DNA of 37,493 bases, from NCBI GenBank assembly GCA_048938385.1, contig JBHLMG010000022.1, forward strand, positions 1 through 37,493, given 5' to 3'. The DNA comes from Promethearchaeota archaeon. GTDB lineage: Archaea; Asgardarchaeota; Hermodarchaeia; Hermodarchaeales; Hermodarchaeaceae. Positions 19,061 to 29,068 of this stretch are shown here, piece by piece (the first letter of the stretch is position 1; every line of letters begins with the position of its first letter). A model generated the notes under the pieces. The model ran no database searches and had not been told where the DNA came from. It worked only from the letters and a program-made list of their open reading frames with translations. Made by a program: the position numbers and the translations under genes.

Positions 19061-19996
19061 TCATTGCGTTTTAAGGAGATAACCCACAAAAGCCGAAAAG
19101 GCTACTACCCACAGCATTAAGAGAATTGGAGTTATGAGGAACTCACACACGAAAAGGAGATCCCAAAGAAGGAAAGCTCCAACCAATACTATCACAACTG
19201 TTAGCAAGCTATTAGCAAAACGAAACCTATTACTACGGAGCGGTTTAACAACAACTGTAAGTCCCCATACGACAAGAATCAAATTACACAACAAAAACAT
19301 GGCAAACATCACCAATATGGGAATTTGAAAGAACTTGGAGAGGGACATAATCATTAGAGGCATCCATGGATCGGTTATAGGTAACCATGGATAGAGTATG
19401 AAGGGGGATAAAGACTGAACATGAGATAGGAGTAATATGAACAAAACACTGAGGATACCACTGATACTCACCAAGATCTTCAGCCCGATCGAATTACGAG
19501 GTTTAATGTAATCGTAAATTGTCAAAGTGATAAGAAATGACCCCAACACCACTTGGAGAAGGGCTGAAGATACGAGACCGATGATAAACCTGCTCGATGC
19601 GACTCCAGAGGGGTAGGGGTAATAATAGTAAACGATCAACCCTTCGACCTTTGGAAAAAGGTGTATAAATGGCCTCCATATCCACCCACACCATAATCCT
19701 ACGAAGATAATTGCCGCCCCAATAGGAATCGTCCAGCCACGAACAGGACCCTGCCTAACCAGTCCTCCATATATAAGAACGAGATAGACCCCAAAACCGA
19801 TCTCGATTATGGCGATAAACGATGTTCCCGTATAAACCAGTAATTGGAGCATTGATAGAAGGGGAGCCACAATATAATCTGTGATTGGCAACTGGAACTG
19901 TATCCAACTAAAGAAGAATGTGCCAATCAACAAGATCCCCCAACCCTGGAGAATACGCTCTAAATATTCACGCAAACCCTTCCAACCTCTGTTCAC
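19061..19996 (-). CDS. Polytopic membrane protein (about 8 TM)
   Basis: Long uninterrupted hydrophobic ORF; GTG start. Confidence 0.8.
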   Translation of the reverse strand: MNRGWKGLREYLERILQGWGILLIGTFFFSWIQFQLPITDYIVAPLLSMLQLLVYTGTSFIAIIEIGFGVYLVLIYGGLVRQGPVRGWTIPIGAAIIFVGLWCGWIWRPFIHLFPKVEGLIVYYYYPYPSGVASSRFIIGLVSSALLQVVLGSFLITLTIYDYIKPRNSIGLKILVSISGILSVLFILLLSHVQSLSPFILYPWLPITDPWMPLMIMSLSKFFQIPILVMFAMFLLCNLILVVWGLTVVVKPLRSNRFRFANSLLTVVIVLVGAFLLWDLLFVCEFLITPILLMLWVVAFSAFVGYLLKTQ

Positions 19997-20110
19997 TCAT
20001 TGAGACATCACTGTAATAAATCTTGACTCACGGATCACTTCTTGGGCTATGTTAGCGGAGTGCAAGTTAGCGGTGTATAACAAATTTTCCTGGGTAAAAC
20101 ATCCAGTTAT

Positions 20111-21685
20111 CTACTTAATCTGCAACCAAAACTGGGCTAAATCATCTGCAAGGCGGGTTGACATAAGCCCTCGAAGGGAGAGCTCCTGAACTCCTTGAAG
20201 GAATCGGTCCACACGTCTCTTATGTTTTAACTCATTATTTCTCGTCGCCTGTTTGTCAAGACTTTCTCTGAATCTGGGTTTAGAAACCATCTCAAGGCGT
20301 AAATGTTCTTGTAGTGTTAGACAAAACTGGTCATCAAAAAGCTGAACATTGAAGGCTTTCACAGGTGGAACATTCTTTGTACCTTTCCAATGAATCGGAG
20401 ATGGTGGTTGTTGAAATCTTAATGGCGGAATAATTGCGTATCGAGTGGGATCGAGTGTTTTGATAATAAAAATTGGAATTAAAACCTCTACGAAAAGGTG
20501 TTCACCAAGGAAATCATTAGTTTTAGCAGATATATCTAAGCACCGATTGTATTGTTCTTCTAATTTTGAACTAATGTCATGAAGTGTTTGAATGAGTGTG
20601 GGATAGCTACCGAGAATCCGTTCGCGCAGACTTACCAAGATACTCAATTGTGATTGAGCCTGTACACCAACGCTTTTTCTTGGAGAATGCAGTGAGCGAT
20701 ATTCAGGTACAGAGCTGACTAACATGTCCTGTTGATGTCCTATTTTCTCTTGCTCGTAAAGAGACAACCAGCGACGTTCTACTTCTTCAAGTTGGGAAGA
20801 CGCCACATCAAGCTCAATTGAGGTCTGTTGAAGTGATTGCCGGAAATCATGCGCAAGGATCTGGGGTTGAATCAGATCTTCAGGATTATCCCGAAAAATT
20901 AAATCCGTCTTTGTTGGGCTTGAATCCATTTGAAGGATAAATTGGCGGCATTGGTGTGTGGCAAATTTCAGTATACCTTCCAAATGATTTAGCAGCTGTG
21001 ACATATCCAATTCAGCAGCTGTGCTCTGATGAATTTTCAATCTCTCTTCGTTAATGTAATTTAATTGACGCTCGATATACTTGTTAATGGTATCCATCAT
21101 GTGCATCAAATGCTTATGACAGAGAGTAAGTCGTGTTATTTCCTCGCGCAAATTAGATTCAAGATCCTGTGCATCTATCTTGCCAAATGCCGGTTCGATA
21201 CATCGTTTCTTAGATGGCGGAGGTAATGATGGTTCTATGAGTCGACGAATTGGGTCCAGCATCGAAGGTTTCATCGGTTTCGGGAGCGTGATACTTGTTG
21301 GATGCAGATTCCTTACAAGCTTCTCTAAATTGACCACTAGGCTCGGAACCTGTTGGGTTTGTTCAACATGGCTTAGCAGGTTTTCAAGGGCCTCTGGTGG
21401 CAAAACTGTGATGTTCTTGAGTGTAATAGAGGAATTTCCTACCCCGCAAACAATGAGGCTATGTTCAGGATTTACTCTAATAAGATAGATGGGCAAATAG
21501 AGCTTCGAAATATAGGATAATCGTAATGATGAACGGGATTGCATACGCAAATATGTAACGGCGGCAACTAGGTCTGACTCTGGAGTGAAACCAAGCTTTC
21601 CTTTTTTACTTTCCCATACCCACTGTGCTTTTGGTTGCTCCCTGATGGGCGAACGAAAAAATGCAGCAACCTTTGTCTCGGTCAC
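20111..21685 (-). CDS. Hypothetical protein with a long central coiled coil between globular N- and C-terminal regions
   Basis: 524 aa; Q/E/L heptad-rich middle; GTGA overlap with the upstream gene (21682-21685). Confidence 0.85.
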   Translation of the reverse strand: MTETKVAAFFRSPIREQPKAQWVWESKKGKLGFTPESDLVAAVTYLRMQSRSSLRLSYISKLYLPIYLIRVNPEHSLIVCGVGNSSITLKNITVLPPEALENLLSHVEQTQQVPSLVVNLEKLVRNLHPTSITLPKPMKPSMLDPIRRLIEPSLPPPSKKRCIEPAFGKIDAQDLESNLREEITRLTLCHKHLMHMMDTINKYIERQLNYINEERLKIHQSTAAELDMSQLLNHLEGILKFATHQCRQFILQMDSSPTKTDLIFRDNPEDLIQPQILAHDFRQSLQQTSIELDVASSQLEEVERRWLSLYEQEKIGHQQDMLVSSVPEYRSLHSPRKSVGVQAQSQLSILVSLRERILGSYPTLIQTLHDISSKLEEQYNRCLDISAKTNDFLGEHLFVEVLIPIFIIKTLDPTRYAIIPPLRFQQPPSPIHWKGTKNVPPVKAFNVQLFDDQFCLTLQEHLRLEMVSKPRFRESLDKQATRNNELKHKRRVDRFLQGVQELSLRGLMSTRLADDLAQFWLQIK

Positions 21686-22260
21686 TGGGCTGTCACTCCG
21701 TCAAGAGGTGGATACGAGATTACAAGATCACTTTCTAGATCAAAAAAAAGAAGGGCCTTGTCTCCACCATTCACTTTATGGACGAAGTTATCTGGGAATG
21801 CATAGCCTGAATGTGGCACACAGCAAGTGATTTCGTGTTCCCAATATTCATGGCAGCACGGACAGCTCGTATCTCCTACCCATTCGAACTTGTATTTACC
21901 TGGTATCATGTGAGGTATCAGTATTTGTCCGTTCTTGTCAGTCTGAAGACTATAGATTTCAATATATCTTCCTTCTAGTTCCGTGCAGTTCCAGTAGTAC
22001 ACTGTGATCCATTCTTCGCATAATGGATATACGCCAGCAGGCCATTCGGCTGGAACATCCCAGAAGAAGCTCTTCGTCAAGTCACATTTAGTGGGTGGAG
22101 ACCGGCATTTGGAAACGGATTCAGGTGAATTTTGGGGATTCGAATTAGGCTGTGTAAAGGTATGAGTGGGGAATGGGGTGTTTGGTGAAAGGTAAAGCGC
22201 TATGATGATAAGCGCGTAGGTAGAGACAAGGATAGCAATGTGGATCTTGTTTCTCTCCAT
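21682..22260 (-). CDS. Membrane-anchored Cys-rich protein with a CnaB/SpaA (prealbumin-like) domain
   Basis: N-terminal TM; Pro/Ser/Asn linker; TDKNGQILIPHMIPGKY motif; 9 Cys including CPCC and CC. Confidence 0.75.
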   Translation of the reverse strand: MERNKIHIAILVSTYALIIIALYLSPNTPFPTHTFTQPNSNPQNSPESVSKCRSPPTKCDLTKSFFWDVPAEWPAGVYPLCEEWITVYYWNCTELEGRYIEIYSLQTDKNGQILIPHMIPGKYKFEWVGDTSCPCCHEYWEHEITCCVPHSGYAFPDNFVHKVNGGDKALLFFDLESDLVISYPPLDGVTAQ

Positions 22261-22384
22261 TTATTTTTTCCATTTAGCCGGGTTTTTATTTATGGTGGAG
22301 ATTATGTTGGCTTTTAGCCTCCTCCCTACTCCACTGGTGAGGTCTTTGTTCCGCTGCCCGTTGTCGTCGCCTAGAATTCTTCTC

Positions 22385-22398
22385 GAAACCAGTACCTC
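22385..22398 (+). repeat. Direct repeat GAAACCAGTACCTC, copy 1
   Basis: Exact 14-mer repeated at 22944-22957. Confidence 0.85.
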
Positions 22399-22450
22399 AG
22401 CGCATATTGGGGCAGAAATTCGACAAAAAGATTTTGGTTATCTGGAACTC

Positions 22451-22880
22451 TAGTTTATAATGTAATAATGTTAAAGATTTGCGTTTTCTTTTGATTAAGG
22501 TGGTTTGTGACTTATTTTACAATAGCCTATTAGTTCTGCTGTATTTAAAAAGTAAATAACAATGAAATTTTTTGATTTAATTCTATAATTTTTGAATATG
22601 GTATATTAAATATACTAATTTTAAATATTATTATAAAGCTTTACAGGTTTTTATTGTAGTATTAGTGATTATAAATCGTTATGTTTTTAATATTTTTAGT
22701 ATAATTATTATCTTACAAAAATTTTTATCGCATGAGAATTAAATAGGCTTTAGTAATAATAATTTTTATTAATATTATAAGAACAAATTTTTAGATTTTT
22801 ACTAAAATTAACCACTAAGTAATAAATTTTTGCTAAAAAAGGAAGATTTTTACACTATCAATAGTGAATCCTAGTATAAG
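22451..22880. other. Extremely AT-rich non-coding spacer, probably carrying divergent promoters
   Basis: Visibly much more AT-rich than the rest of the window; TATA-like TTATAAAC (minus strand, 22453-22460) and TATAAG (plus strand, 22875-22880) at its edges. Confidence 0.6.
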
Positions 22881-22897
22881 TACAATCCATCGGATAG

Positions 22898-23037
22898 GAC
22901 GCTAAGCTCTGAGGTCGCGAATGATCTGGCACTTCAAACGTTGGAAACCAGTACCTCTCCCCTGAAAAGGGGATGTGTTTTCAGAAGAGTCAAATCCGCG
23001 GAAACCTCGGACACTTCCTGAGACAATCATCTGGCGT
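22898..23037 (+). ncRNA. Candidate structured ncRNA (about 140 nt), family not recognised
   Basis: Closing helix ACGCTA/TGGCGT; GAGGT/ACCTC helix enclosing CTGG/CCAG; TCCCCT-GAAA-AGGGGA hairpin; long hairpin around TCCGCGGAAACCTCGGA; TATA-like box about 20 nt upstream; no credible CDS. Confidence 0.4.
22944..22957 (+). repeat. Direct repeat GAAACCAGTACCTC, copy 2
   Basis: Exact 14-mer also found at 22385-22398. Confidence 0.85.
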
Positions 23038-23048
23038 ATACATCTTCT

Positions 23049-23501
23049 TCAGTCTAACGGGATTTGAAGTTTTAGAGAATCAGTTTGGCTTGAAATCCGT
23101 TTTTTTCCATTTTGGGCAACAATCTGATATTCCAGATTCAATGAGTAGGGGGATGGAATAGCACGACTTGGAAGAAACAGGGCTGAGAATTTGTATTGCT
23201 TCGTTTGGCCGCTGGGAATTTCGTGTTTTAGATTTTGAGTTAAGACATTATCCATTTTTGTGATGCGGTTTCGTCCTATCATTTTGTAGATCCGTTTACG
23301 AAATAAGAACCTGTTTGAGTGAGAGGTAATTATGACTTTGACACGAATAGGAAAATCGAAGCCATTCAATATTGCGAATATTAACTGATAGGGGATCGTT
23401 CCAGGTCTGGGCGATGCCTTTAGGTTCTTTTCCAGGGTAATCTTCCATCTGAGGTTAGTGGTTCTTGACTCTTCAAGGGTAGGGTTATTCCTTTTTGGCA
23501 T
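23049..23501 (-). CDS. Basic beta-sandwich (Ig-like) hypothetical protein
   Basis: Alternating beta pattern, N-x-x-D-x-P-I and I-P-S-G-Q-T-K-x-Y-x-F motifs; no signal peptide. Confidence 0.7.
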   Translation of the reverse strand: MPKRNNPTLEESRTTNLRWKITLEKNLKASPRPGTIPYQLIFAILNGFDFPIRVKVIITSHSNRFLFRKRIYKMIGRNRITKMDNVLTQNLKHEIPSGQTKQYKFSALFLPSRAIPSPYSLNLEYQIVAQNGKKRISSQTDSLKLQIPLD

Positions 23502-23741
23502 TTTGATCCATTCGGATTAGTCTTTCTGGATTTCACTCTATTCAGTAAGATATAACCATTCTGAGGTTGAACCAGTCGAAGAAAATTCCCTAATTAAAGA
23601 ATTTTAGCCTTTAATTTCTTCAAGAATGTATGGGGCTCACCTTATGATTTTACTTCACAAGCTTTGGATGGCTCTTCATTTGGCGCTAAGGCTCTAAGAA
23701 AACATGGGGTTTTCAAGTGTTAATGAATTCTTTTTTCTCAG

Positions 23742-24053
23742 TTACAAATCTGAAAGGTCTAACGCTGACCCTTGAGTGCAATAGTACTCCCAGCGAAGAC
23801 TCATCGTTTTCGTAACCGGGCATGTTGAACACAAACATCCTTTTTGTGTTTGGATGGATTCACTTTTTTTAGTAGAGCAAAAGCCAACCGTGGTTTCCCT
23901 GCTCCTGATGTAAGTCGGACATCTGTTGCAAAGGCACATGTAGTTTACTTGTTCTACGCCTCGCTTTTGCTCTGCTTCAGACATACTCGTCATCATCGCT
24001 TTGTATTTCTCTTCGAAAGTCGCTGTTTTCCACCGTTCTTCAATATCTGACAT
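23742..24053 (-). CDS. DUF2769 family Cys-rich protein
   Basis: CLCNRCPTY...FC...GCLCSTCPV...YYC..G (8 Cys); likely start MSDIEE at 24053. Confidence 0.88.
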   Translation of the reverse strand: MSDIEERWKTATFEEKYKAMMTSMSEAEQKRGVEQVNYMCLCNRCPTYIRSRETTVGFCSTKKSESIQTQKGCLCSTCPVTKTMSLRWEYYCTQGSALDLSDL

Positions 24054-26614: not shown

Positions 26615-29068
26615 ATGACTCTTCGTTCATCACGTTTAGTGTCAGCAATATTCATTGTAACATTGTTGACTATGATGTTTTGTACTCCCATGGGCTTTTT
26701 TTCACCATTGGGCGGTACTTATGCTAGCGGTCCTCCTGTAAAAGGTTTGGATAACTTTGTGGAGGATTTCGCTACCACGACTTACCGAGATGGTGTTACC
26801 ACCGCTTCGGGCTGGGGCACTGGCGCGATTTCGAATCCCCGCGTCAGTGTAATCACTCAGCTTGATTTCTTCAGCACTGCTGATCCGGTTATGGATGTGG
26901 ATGTACAAGGACGAAAAGCCTACTTCACCATGAAAACTTCGGGTCCCGATTCACTTCAGATCGTGGATCTTTCAAATCCAGAGCAGATTACACTGATGGA
27001 TACTAGAAACGCTGCAGGTGACTTGATTTCCATTGAAGTAGTGGGTGATATTGCTTATGTTGGAACTGGTGCAGCTGGTGGCACCTGGATGGCTGCTTAC
27101 AATGTAAGCAATCCCTACAGTATTCCCTTTCCTGAATGGGACTCAAACATTGGAAGTGACGCTATTACCGACCTCACTGTCCAGGGACACCACCTTTACG
27201 CCGCCTTATATGGTGTTTTTGGTGCGTTTCGCATTTACGATGTGGAAGACCCAGCAAACATCATCCAAGTGTTTGACCAAACCTGGAACAATCTCACGGC
27301 AATAGATGTGAAAGGGCAGTTATCCTACATGGCGCATGGTGAATGGGGATTTAATGTCCGTAATGTGTCTAATCCCTATGCCCCAGTTTCGGTGGGCTCA
27401 GTAGATACACCAGGGAACGCCTCAGCCGTATTGGTTGAGGGCACTTTAGCCTATGTGGCTGATTGGGAAAGTGGTGTGCAAATCATAGATGTCAGCACTC
27501 CTGATACTCCAACAATCGTTGGTACTTTTGATACAACAGGTCAAGCTCAGAATCTGGCACTTCAAGGGAAAACCCTCTTCGTAGCTGATGGTGATGGGGG
27601 ACTAGTGTGTTTGGATGTTTCGAACCCTGCCTCACCTCAATATGTCTCATCTATTGGCACGGCTTACACCTACGATGTTGCCCTCTATGGGGGCGTCGTT
27701 GTTGTTGGTACAGCAAGTGGTCTCTATACCTTTCAGGTAGGGATCGGTCTTGCCGATTTACCGCTAGTTGGTGTCTTTGATGCAGGATATGAGGTATGGG
27801 ATGTCCGGGTCTGTGGAGATGTTGCCTATGTCGCCGCAGGACCTAATGGTTTCCTCACCATCGATGTTAGCGATGTGACAAACCCGGTTCTCCTTGATCA
27901 ATACAATGCCACCGCTGACCATTACCGAAAACTCGATGTCCAAGGACACTTGGCCTATGTGATCGATTCTTCCGTGTCTGGAGGAGAATTACGTATTTTC
28001 GATGTGAGTGATCCCAGCAACATTCAGTCAGTGTGGGTTGGGGTAGGAACCAATCTGATGGATGTCTTTGCCTTTGGTGAAGTCGTCTTCTACACCTACG
28101 CCACTGGTTTTGGGGCTCTGAATGTCTCTGACCCCTACAGCCCTAATATCATGTGGACACGTAGCACCGGAACGAACATGACCGCTTGTTGGGTGCAAGG
28201 CTATCATCTTTACATGGTGAGCCGAGTCACCTCAGGTGTTGGCTTCTTTATCTACGACATCACTGACCTGAATGCCCCGAATTCGATCTACACCTGGGGT
28301 GGAGTATCCACCAACCAGTATGATATCTTCGTGGAAGGTGATTCTGCCTACATAGTTGATGCAGCGGGTACTGCATATTCCGAACATTGGAATGTAATGA
28401 ACCCTTACAATCCTTACTACAGTGACTATGTGAATTCTCTCTCTGGAACTCCAATGGGCGTCTGGGCCTTTGGACCCTACATGGTAACCGCAAATTACAC
28501 TGGTGGCGTGTGTCTTTGGAACACCTCAGATATCAATGACATGCAATACCTTGCTGGTTATGCTGAGGCCAATCGCTCCGTTCAAATCACCGTAGCTGGT
28601 GACTACATCTATGTAGCGAACCGTACATCTCTAGTTATCCTGCGACTCTTCCACAGTGCTGGTAACACCTACATAACCAGTTCTTTAGCTCAATCAACTC
28701 AAGTAGACGCCACTGCACAACCCATTAGGAAGGCAACACTGACACGAACGGCAACTCTTCCCTCCGGAACCAGCATTGATTTCGAAATGTCTGCTGATGG
28801 AGGAACACACTGGGAAACCGTGACTGTAGGTGTAGAGCACACCTTCGCATTTCCGGGCAGTGATTTGCGATGGCTAGCCGCTTTCGCTAGCAGCTTTAAC
28901 CACCACACGCCAAGCTTGTCTCAAGTTACTATTGATTACGAGTACGACGATCCTCTCCCACCCTTTAACCCCTTACTGCTCATTGGTATTGCAGCGGCAA
29001 TCATCCTAGTCATCGTTGTGCTAGTGGTCTTTCTGTTTCTTCGTCAACGATCCCGGGGACCTAAATAG
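26615..29068 (+). CDS. LVIVD-repeat (beta-propeller) surface protein with a C-terminal TM anchor
   Basis: Many V-x-G-x-x-AYVAD...G-x-x-I-x-DVS-x-P repeats; signal peptide from MTLRSS (ATG 26615, GGAG upstream); C-terminal PLPP-TM-RQR. Confidence 0.92.
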   Translation: MTLRSSRLVSAIFIVTLLTMMFCTPMGFFSPLGGTYASGPPVKGLDNFVEDFATTTYRDGVTTASGWGTGAISNPRVSVITQLDFFSTADPVMDVDVQGRKAYFTMKTSGPDSLQIVDLSNPEQITLMDTRNAAGDLISIEVVGDIAYVGTGAAGGTWMAAYNVSNPYSIPFPEWDSNIGSDAITDLTVQGHHLYAALYGVFGAFRIYDVEDPANIIQVFDQTWNNLTAIDVKGQLSYMAHGEWGFNVRNVSNPYAPVSVGSVDTPGNASAVLVEGTLAYVADWESGVQIIDVSTPDTPTIVGTFDTTGQAQNLALQGKTLFVADGDGGLVCLDVSNPASPQYVSSIGTAYTYDVALYGGVVVVGTASGLYTFQVGIGLADLPLVGVFDAGYEVWDVRVCGDVAYVAAGPNGFLTIDVSDVTNPVLLDQYNATADHYRKLDVQGHLAYVIDSSVSGGELRIFDVSDPSNIQSVWVGVGTNLMDVFAFGEVVFYTYATGFGALNVSDPYSPNIMWTRSTGTNMTACWVQGYHLYMVSRVTSGVGFFIYDITDLNAPNSIYTWGGVSTNQYDIFVEGDSAYIVDAAGTAYSEHWNVMNPYNPYYSDYVNSLSGTPMGVWAFGPYMVTANYTGGVCLWNTSDINDMQYLAGYAEANRSVQITVAGDYIYVANRTSLVILRLFHSAGNTYITSSLAQSTQVDATAQPIRKATLTRTATLPSGTSIDFEMSADGGTHWETVTVGVEHTFAFPGSDLRWLAAFASSFNHHTPSLSQVTIDYEYDDPLPPFNPLLLIGIAAAIILVIVVLVVFLFLRQRSRGPK

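Follow-up and report, generated by a model that had tools for sequence, protein, structure and literature searches.

What does it mean that an exact 14-nt repeat stands on either side of an AT-rich intergenic spacer in an Asgard archaeon? The DNA in question (the window) is a stretch of 37,493 nt from a Promethearchaeota archaeon of the family Hermodarchaeaceae (GenBank assembly GCA_048938385.1, contig JBHLMG010000022.1). It makes up the whole of contig C26 in an assembly of 51 contigs and 2.48 Mb. The 14-mer GAAACCAGTACCTC is found on the plus strand at 22385–22398 (copy 1) and 22944–22957 (copy 2), within the gap between two minus-strand open reading frames (ORFs; gap 22261–23048), and TGAGGTC occurs once before each copy (22338–22344 and 22910–22916). 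The GC content of 22401–22800 is 20%, against ~44% in the surrounding sequence. An earlier note on this DNA had pointed out the repeat, the heptamers and the spacer, all of which are in the sequence as described. It had proposed a switch made of a plus-strand small RNA (sRNA) carrying copy 2 and the leader of the divergent minus-strand operon carrying copy 1. Comparison with related genomes indicates that the segment around copy 2 is a genuine small RNA gene of Hermodarchaeota, hitherto uncatalogued and called sRNA-1 here. It is a good candidate antisense regulator of an Asgard archaeon, for which a target can be named, the leader of the neighbouring operon (L1).

The repeat alone is not significant. 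A genome-wide count gave these two exact copies and three further sites with one mismatch; a 14-nt complement to an RNA of 112 nt is expected ~1.8 times in the genome by chance, and three sites of at least 14 nt were found. What goes beyond chance is the position of copy 1, which is 560 bp off in a conserved leader of the neighbouring operon, together with its conservation. A second 14-nt exact complement to sRNA-1 lies at 27552–27565, antisense within an LVIVD-repeat gene. It matches positions 21–34 of the RNA, which are base-paired in the lower stem, and fits the chance expectation.

A small RNA gene and its family

The relatives in our genome collection make up one family (f1) with two genera (g1 and g2). 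They are metagenome-assembled genomes (MAGs), and the source genome is referred to as G000. A pattern scan across public genomes gave hits in Hermodarchaeota and related Asgard MAGs only. The sequencing runs matching positions 21000–24000 of the window are sediment and mangrove DNA runs only. Segment 22903–23020 shows 76–86% identity in ten other g1 genomes, and its flanks are not conserved. When the orthologues from 11 species were aligned, RNAalifold returned an unbranched rod of 33 pairs. In this alignment 96.7% of the cells are paired, as opposed to 33–50% when the partners are slid by 1–3 columns. Compensatory changes are seen at eight pairs, and none of 500 shuffles matched the observed pairing or covariation score. 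The pairs 25–96, 26–95 and 42–86 include G·U, which on the other strand would be C·A, and a covariance model built from the sRNA-1 orthologues alone (R1) scores 115.7 bits on the plus strand and 11.6 bits on the minus strand. These two results fix sRNA-1 on the plus strand. A block A(C/G)AGAAnnTTTTTAC upstream is kept in all 11 orthologues and the stretch from it to the RNA is not conserved, which is the pattern expected of an archaeal promoter. The plus-strand sRNA gene behind a TATA box, as postulated from the single sequence, is thus borne out by 11 orthologues, a conserved box and a covarying fold. The candidate seed, CGTTGGAAACCAGTACCTC, includes copy 2, and within it AAAC(C/T)AGTACCTCT is invariant in all 11 species.

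sRNA-1 occurs in two different neighbourhoods. Six genomes, G000 included, have it beside an operon encoding proteins of 524 and 192 amino acids (aa); in five others it follows a 158-aa gene and that operon is not in the vicinity, which makes it a gene in its own right. A seventh genome has the operon at a contig end, where the contig stops before the sRNA. In Rfam 15, neither the window nor the sibling RNAs described below gave a match at the gathering threshold or at E-values up to 10, and the sRNA thus falls into none of its curated families. Some familiar identities were considered and set aside: the canonical 5S rRNA sits on contig C23, no TROVE/Ro domain that would suggest a Y RNA was found in the genome, and the lower-stem loops, judged by eye, fit none of the C/D-box, H/ACA and K-turn consensus patterns.

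sRNA-1 is not alone. R1 finds 1–4 full-length matches in each of the 19 family genomes. A broader model (R2), built from 32 members of all types, gives 3–5 copies per genome in most, is positive in 18 of 18 f1 relatives and finds none in 132 other Asgard genomes searched. With R2 the score of sRNA-1 is 102.6 bits, its orthologues having been in the training set; with R1 the siblings score 26–50 bits. The siblings in G000 lie at C1:20009–20120, C22:30406–30539 and C22:62327–62440. Each has a TATA box 24–27 nt before the start of the conserved RNA, and a T-rich tail follows two of the three. Where sRNA-1 has its seed the siblings have GAAACCATTCCCTC, with two positions different, and within the 10-nt core sRNA-1 departs from them at exactly the two positions that perfect the leader match.

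The lower stem has the form of a bulge–helix–bulge (BHB) motif. In all 32 members a 6-bp helix, a 4-bp helix and an inner helix are set apart by two bulges, one on each strand and each exactly 3 nt long. The helices are 91–100% paired with compensatory changes in most pairs, in an alignment that was fitted to the model. The outer-helix TGAGGT of sRNA-1 pairs with the 3′ end of the RNA and covaries to GAAGGC/GCCTTC in other species. Since G000 also has two splicing-endonuclease genes (both subunits on contig C23) and one RtcB ligase gene, excision of ~81 nt, possibly as a circle, is plausible. The likely product is the upper ~81 nt (~22921–23002), cut out by the tRNA-splicing endonuclease and possibly circularised by RtcB. 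This arrangement changes the reading of the heptamer: the earlier note had taken it as a second block of pairing with the leader, but the TGAGGT of the sRNA belongs to the outer BHB helix and would be cut away on processing, so that this match is probably coincidental.

Some observations concern the siblings themselves. The AAUUGGAGGGGAG sites, which are exact complementary words of at least 13 nt to the siblings, turned out to be arms of G/C-rich hairpins, some of them terminator-like. For the sibling at C22:62327–62440 a 19-nt perfect complement exists at C48:52573–52591, inside an open frame of 409 codons and ten codons short of its stop; chance alone would supply ~0.002 matches of this kind. 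This complement is absent from all 14 other genomes of the genus and is therefore recent or accidental. Two sibling genes adjoin genes for small zinc-ribbon proteins with CxxC...CxxC (C1:20163–20636 and C22:29864–30328).

Structured leaders and their match to sRNA-1

Region 22261–22445 is conserved in seven syntenic genomes, and indels in the relatives break a 71-aa plus-strand ORF, so that it is not coding. An alignment of 15 leaders of both types (L1 and a paralogue, L2) shares a TATA-like block, a non-conserved spacer of 23–24 nt, a box beginning GAGGUAC and an invariant hairpin. The distance from TATA box to RNA equals that of the sRNA genes, which predicts an mRNA start at ~22400 and places the box at the very 5′ end of the predicted mRNA. 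The start at ~22430 given in the earlier note is accordingly displaced; with an alternative TATA-like element it would fall near 22427, which still leaves the box within the transcript. Genus g1 alone yielded leaders (14 of 15 genomes), and the same holds for sRNA-1 (11 of 15).

As had been proposed, copy 1 is part of the divergent operon's leader, and on the mRNA strand its cis partner is the TGAGGT block. The mRNA UGAGGU (22399–22394) pairs with ACCUCA (22343–22338) to form helix H1, and the next bases pair with GGAAC/GGACCA (H1b). H1 is 100% paired in seven species, and single-sequence minimum-energy folds recover H1/H1b in four of six. The longest invariant run of the leader is TGAGGTACTGG. 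Variation in H1/H1b is confined to the 3′ partner and the box side is invariant. Three pairs alternate between Watson–Crick and G·U (UA/UG, GC/GU, UA/UG), and the plus strand would give C·A mismatches, so the structure belongs to the mRNA strand. A second hairpin, H2, is invariant or nearly so in the 15 leaders; G000 has it in L1 and L2 only, L2 being the only other leader of this family in the genome.

The core CCAGTACCTC does not vary in either element in the six species that have both, nor in the leader of the seventh. Perfect runs between sRNA-1 and L1 measure 10–14 nt across the six, with 14 nt in G000. The co-conservation of the two copies that the switch called for is thus seen, and it extends to the second leader paralogue and to unlinked loci. 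Nucleotides 22939–22950 of sRNA-1 (CGTTGGAAACCA) perfectly complement the 5′ end of L2 (C36:81431–81442) over 12 nt, with 5 nt more at GAGGU (−29.6 kcal mol−1). The CAACG/CGUUG pairing in this duplex lies outside the original observation. In G002, G006, G011 and G013 the leaders, which were found by their hairpin, are unlinked to sRNA-1 and start (U/C)GAGGUA(U/C)C(U/A)GGUUUC(C)(A/U)AC. With their own sRNA-1 (GUUG(G/A)AAACUAGUACCUC) they can form up to 7 bp, a 1-nt bulge and 11 bp (G002). Duplexes of a 24-nt sRNA-1 segment with the leader reach −20 to −30 kcal mol−1 and begin at leader nucleotide 2 in all ten genomes that have both elements; the complement spans the first 14–22 bases of the leader, and these duplexes exceed at least 99.97% of 3000 random 26-mers of G000. 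The recurrence of the complementarity at L2 and at the unlinked leaders of four other species gives the pairing comparative support. RNAduplex on the full-length sRNA and leader returned long, unrealistic duplexes and was uninformative.

The two partners also vary in step. sRNA-1 variants with GUUG(G/A)AAAC occur in genomes whose leaders have GUUUC(C)AAC. When partners were swapped between genomes, cognate pairs had a mean of −24.1 kcal mol−1 and non-cognate pairs −20.5 kcal mol−1; GUUGGAAAC-type sRNAs with GUUUCCAAC-type leaders gave −25 to −33 kcal mol−1, and CAGNGAAAAC-type sRNAs only −15 to −21 kcal mol−1. A tree of the 524-aa protein makes G000 and G012 sisters (97/97 support), yet they differ in the sRNA segment and in L2 type. 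The swap therefore shows block-level co-variation of the sRNA-1 segment and the leader at the level of predicted duplex energy, among related genomes that are non-independent samples. The positions of all elements are collected in Table 1.

Table 1. Elements of the sRNA-1/L1 locus and of the paralogous leader. Positions are those of the window unless a contig is given; BRE, transcription factor B recognition element; UTR, untranslated region.
Element	Position	Strand	Remarks
sRNA-1, rod-like structured RNA	22904–23015	+	covariance-model match, 115.7 bits
sRNA-1 promoter: BRE-like AGGAAGA, then TATA box TTTTTAC	22840–22853	+	
Candidate seed CGTTGGAAACCAGTACCTC	22939–22957	+	contains copy 2 (22944–22957)
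BHB stem, 5′ side: outer helix TGAGGT (22910–15), central helix CGCG (22916–19), bulge AAT (22920–22), inner helix GAT (22923–25)	22910–22925	+	
BHB stem, 3′ side: ATC (22994–96), CGCG (22997–23000), bulge GAA (23001–03), outer helix ACCTCG (23004–09)	22994–23009	+	
AT-rich spacer (~20% GC) separating the two divergent promoters	22446–22839		
Predicted leader/operon promoter: conserved block AACCAAAATnTTTTT, TATA-like ~22424–22435	22403–22445	−	
Leader L1, structured 5′ UTR of the operon	22261–22402	−	7 syntenic species, 85% mean column identity
Box copy 1, mRNA 5′-UGAGGUACUGGUUUC, 5′ strand of closing helices H1/H1b	22385–22399	−	predicted mRNA 5′ end
3′ strands: H1, mRNA ACCUCA (22338–22343); H1b, mRNA GGAAC (22348–22352)	22338–22352	−	
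Invariant hairpin H2: GUGGAG - UAGGGAGGAGGC...GCC...CAUAAU - CUCCAC	22295–22334	−	
Downstream operon: 192-aa membrane-anchored Cys-rich protein (21682–22260); 524-aa protein of no family (20111–21685); 311-aa polytopic membrane protein (19061–19996)	19061–22260	−	
Paralogous leader L2	C36:81296–81455	−	ahead of a 151-aa paralogue of the 192-aa protein

The genes behind the leaders are related to each other. The 192-aa and 151-aa paralogues each have an N-terminal membrane anchor and a Cys-rich domain. Pfam gave sub-threshold matches only for the downstream proteins, those of the two paralogues being of the prealbumin-like/SdrD_B kind; the 151-aa paralogue has weak matches to SdrD_B/SpaA/CarboxypepD_reg. 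The 524-aa gene is syntenic in seven species. A 164-aa protein encoded convergently to L2 resembles that of the 150-aa ORF of the window (23049–23501), so the two small proteins travel together at both leader loci. In the five other syntenic genomes a 150–162-aa ORF is likewise convergent with sRNA-1, and after it come genes for a Rab/Ras-like small GTPase and a 272-aa protein. In the window a DUF2769 gene and a membrane protein stand beside 23049–23501 (minus strand) in place of the GTPase and 272-aa genes.

Does sRNA-1 act on the leaders?

Comparison establishes the gene with its fold, strand and family, and likewise the leader structure and the conserved complementarity; from these we infer transcription, processing and actual pairing of sRNA-1. 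The best explanation, to which we give about even odds, is that sRNA-1 pairs as an antisense RNA with the 5′ ends of the leaders and remodels the 5′ end of the mRNA. In this scheme sRNA-1 is a diverged member of a Hermodarchaeota-specific family of ~112-nt RNAs, each with its own promoter. The splicing endonuclease would cut in the BHB lower stem and free the upper ~81 nt, which RtcB might close into a circle. Segment 22939–22957 would then serve as antisense to the first 14–22 nt of structured leaders, which precede genes for membrane-anchored, Cys-rich, beta-sandwich-like proteins. In G000 the putative targets would be two leaders, that of the divergent neighbour (L1, operon 22260–19061, minus strand) and L2, which is unlinked and lies on C36. 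While the leader is free, its 5′-terminal bases are predicted to form the closing helix H1/H1b of the 5′ domain. sRNA-1, by pairing there, would push the 3′ strand of H1/H1b aside, and the remodelled 5′ end could alter mRNA stability and/or translation. The full version, in which a stand-alone RNA is excised and perhaps circularised by the tRNA-splicing machinery and acts in trans by invading the 5′-terminal closing helix of co-evolving leaders, is tentative, and we rather doubt it. As to the switch that the earlier note had imagined, its complementarity is conserved, but the sRNA is one of a multi-copy, lineage-specific family with a BHB stem.

Several results weigh against such pairing. Each of the two RNAs, sRNA-1 and the leader, is already mostly paired within its own fold, and the net gain on cofolding is only −2.5 to −7.3 kcal mol−1, not clearly above scrambled-box controls in three of six species. 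In a genome-wide duplex scan of intergenic windows with the 44-nt core, leader windows rank 13th–50th of 9118; they do so for all four siblings, and the scan therefore does not discriminate. Constrained folds with the box blocked leave the predicted accessibility of the start codon unchanged, so that no output mechanism is evident. The core is invariant on both sides and hence offers no strict compensatory change, and the block-level co-variation amounts to few events among related genomes. The GAGGU of the box is accounted for by the leader's own helix as well. Finally, the co-occurrence of sRNA-1 and leaders in these 72–88% complete MAGs has gaps: the leader was not detected in G005, which has sRNA-1, and sRNA-1 was not detected in G003, G009 and G010, which have leaders; these four genomes are 72–87% complete.

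The strongest alternative is quite possible, although we lean against it. sRNA-1 and the leader may both be real with their complementarity unused, and the C/U-rich, anti-Shine–Dalgarno-like loop of sRNA-1 may act on a protein or on mRNAs of other genes. The match would then come from sequence habits that the two have in common (GAGGU/ACCUC helices, GAAACC), or the seed would descend from a sequence like the 3′ strand of the leader. It would suit this alternative that the seed is nearly the family consensus (the siblings have GAAACCAUUCCCUC, different at two positions), that G005 keeps sRNA-1 although a leader was not detected there, that GAGGUAC leaders persist in three genomes with no detected sRNA-1, that the net predicted binding energy is modest, and that matches of 13–15 nt occur elsewhere in the genome at chance rate. 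It fits poorly with a complement of 14–22 bp that always begins at leader nucleotide 2, in ten genomes and on two leader paralogues, above the genomic background. The 5 nt by which the match on L2 is extended formed no part of the original observation and speak against this alternative too, as do the block-level co-variation and a box that stays invariant while its partner in cis drifts.

The spacer between the promoters invites a different reading, that the two boxes are DNA sites for one protein, either in a replication origin (boxes like origin recognition boxes round a DNA unwinding element) or as a shared operator of the divergent promoters. Some ~400 bp at 20% GC would suit it, as would the overlap of copy 1 with the predicted transcription start of the operon. 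So would the interval between box copy 1 and the sRNA stem, which is held at 526–529 nt in all six syntenic species while the spacer itself drifts near saturation (column identity 0.45–0.7). In that spacer no conserved ORF was found and only small islands such as TTTTTAAA are invariant. Yet all three Orc1/Cdc6 genes (Cdc6_C matches) lie on contig C23 and none is adjacent. The motif has only two copies, direct rather than inverted, and occurs nowhere else in the genome. Copy 2 is part of a covarying RNA helix and loop, and its conservation is just as high in five species whose sRNA gene has different neighbours, with neither the spacer nor the operon beside it; the variation round copy 1 obeys RNA pairing rules on one strand. 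We regard both the operator and the origin, the latter an alternative offered in the earlier note, as very improbable.

The note's other alternative is that the copies are diverged duplicates of one RNA motif, in which case the leader region would encode a degenerate plus-strand sibling of sRNA-1. This could draw on TGAGGTC before both copies on the same strand and on the words CCTAGAA, GAAACCA and CTCCAC, which recur in the siblings as well as on the leader's plus strand. It is hardly credible, since the family covariance model gives the leader region 3 bits with filters off, G·U pairs put the leader structure on the opposite (minus) strand, no plus-strand promoter stands at a suitable distance, and L2, to which the leader is homologous, lies ahead of a paralogous gene.

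Comparison with known systems

To our knowledge almost nothing is known of RNA-based regulation in Asgard archaea, which are the closest archaeal relatives of eukaryotes, and a literature search found no description of sRNAs in Hermodarchaeota. If the proposed pairing and processing are true, sRNA-1 and its leaders would be the first sRNA–target pair defined in Asgard archaea, and its BHB processing would be a regulatory use not described for base-pairing sRNAs. The pair at this locus is concrete and testable: its members are a conserved sRNA that has a 19-nt seed and a conserved structured leader whose 5′-terminal helix strand is the complement. This leader is present in two paralogous copies per genome and varies in step with the seed between species. 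The locus also ties a regulatory RNA candidate to processing of the splice-site type. Both elements are short, so work with synthetic RNA is feasible without a cultured organism.

The nearest relatives of sRNA-1 are its Hermodarchaeal siblings. They share with it the covariance model, the length of ~112 nt, an own TATA box, the rod fold, the BHB lower stem and the C/U-rich upper segment. In the seed of sRNA-1, CCAGUACCUC replaces CCAUUCCCUC and GUUGGAAAC replaces CCUAGAAAC, and the apical hairpin is different. Unlike the siblings, sRNA-1 was found only in genus g1, and it is the sole member so far with an identified conserved complementary partner.

In the bacterial pairs IstR-1/tisB and OhsC/shoB, the sRNA gene is divergent from its target, the genes do not overlap, and the sRNA has a short perfect complement to the 5′ UTR of the target. 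The layout of sRNA-1 and L1 has all of these in common, and to this extent the type I toxin analogy drawn in the earlier note holds. It fails in that there is no small hydrophobic toxin ORF (<~60 aa): the first ORF after the leader has 192 aa, and the leader contains no conserved small ORF. sRNA-1 further differs from type I toxin loci in being archaeal, in belonging to a multi-copy sRNA family and in matching an unlinked paralogous leader as well.

The sRNAs sRNA162, sRNA154 and sRNA41 of Methanosarcina mazei have their own promoters and pair with 5′ UTRs or ribosome-binding regions, some of them through C-rich motifs. sRNA-1 resembles them in being archaeal, in having its own promoter and in the 5′ UTR pairing proposed for it. 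It has no sequence or model similarity to them; it would pair with the very 5′ terminus and with a structural helix, not with a ribosome-binding site, and it carries a BHB stem.

BHB motifs release several kinds of RNA in archaea, including tRNA introns, the box C/D sRNA of the pre-tRNA-Trp intron and the products of rRNA processing stems. The sRNA-1 stem is like these substrates, with two 3-nt bulges on opposite strands, a 4-bp helix between them and a further helix on either side, and the enzymes are encoded in the genome. It is unlike them in that its gene stands alone, not hosted by a tRNA or rRNA, and has no C/D boxes, and its cleavage and circularisation are predictions.

As for what pairing at a 5′ end might achieve, the bacterial sRNA RoxS pairs with the extreme 5′ end of the yflS mRNA, blocks RNase J1 and so changes its decay, and archaea have 5′–3′ exonucleases of the RNase J/aCPSF2 type. 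sRNA-1 would resemble RoxS in having its pairing site at the very 5′ end of the target, an analogy that we draw for the possible output only.

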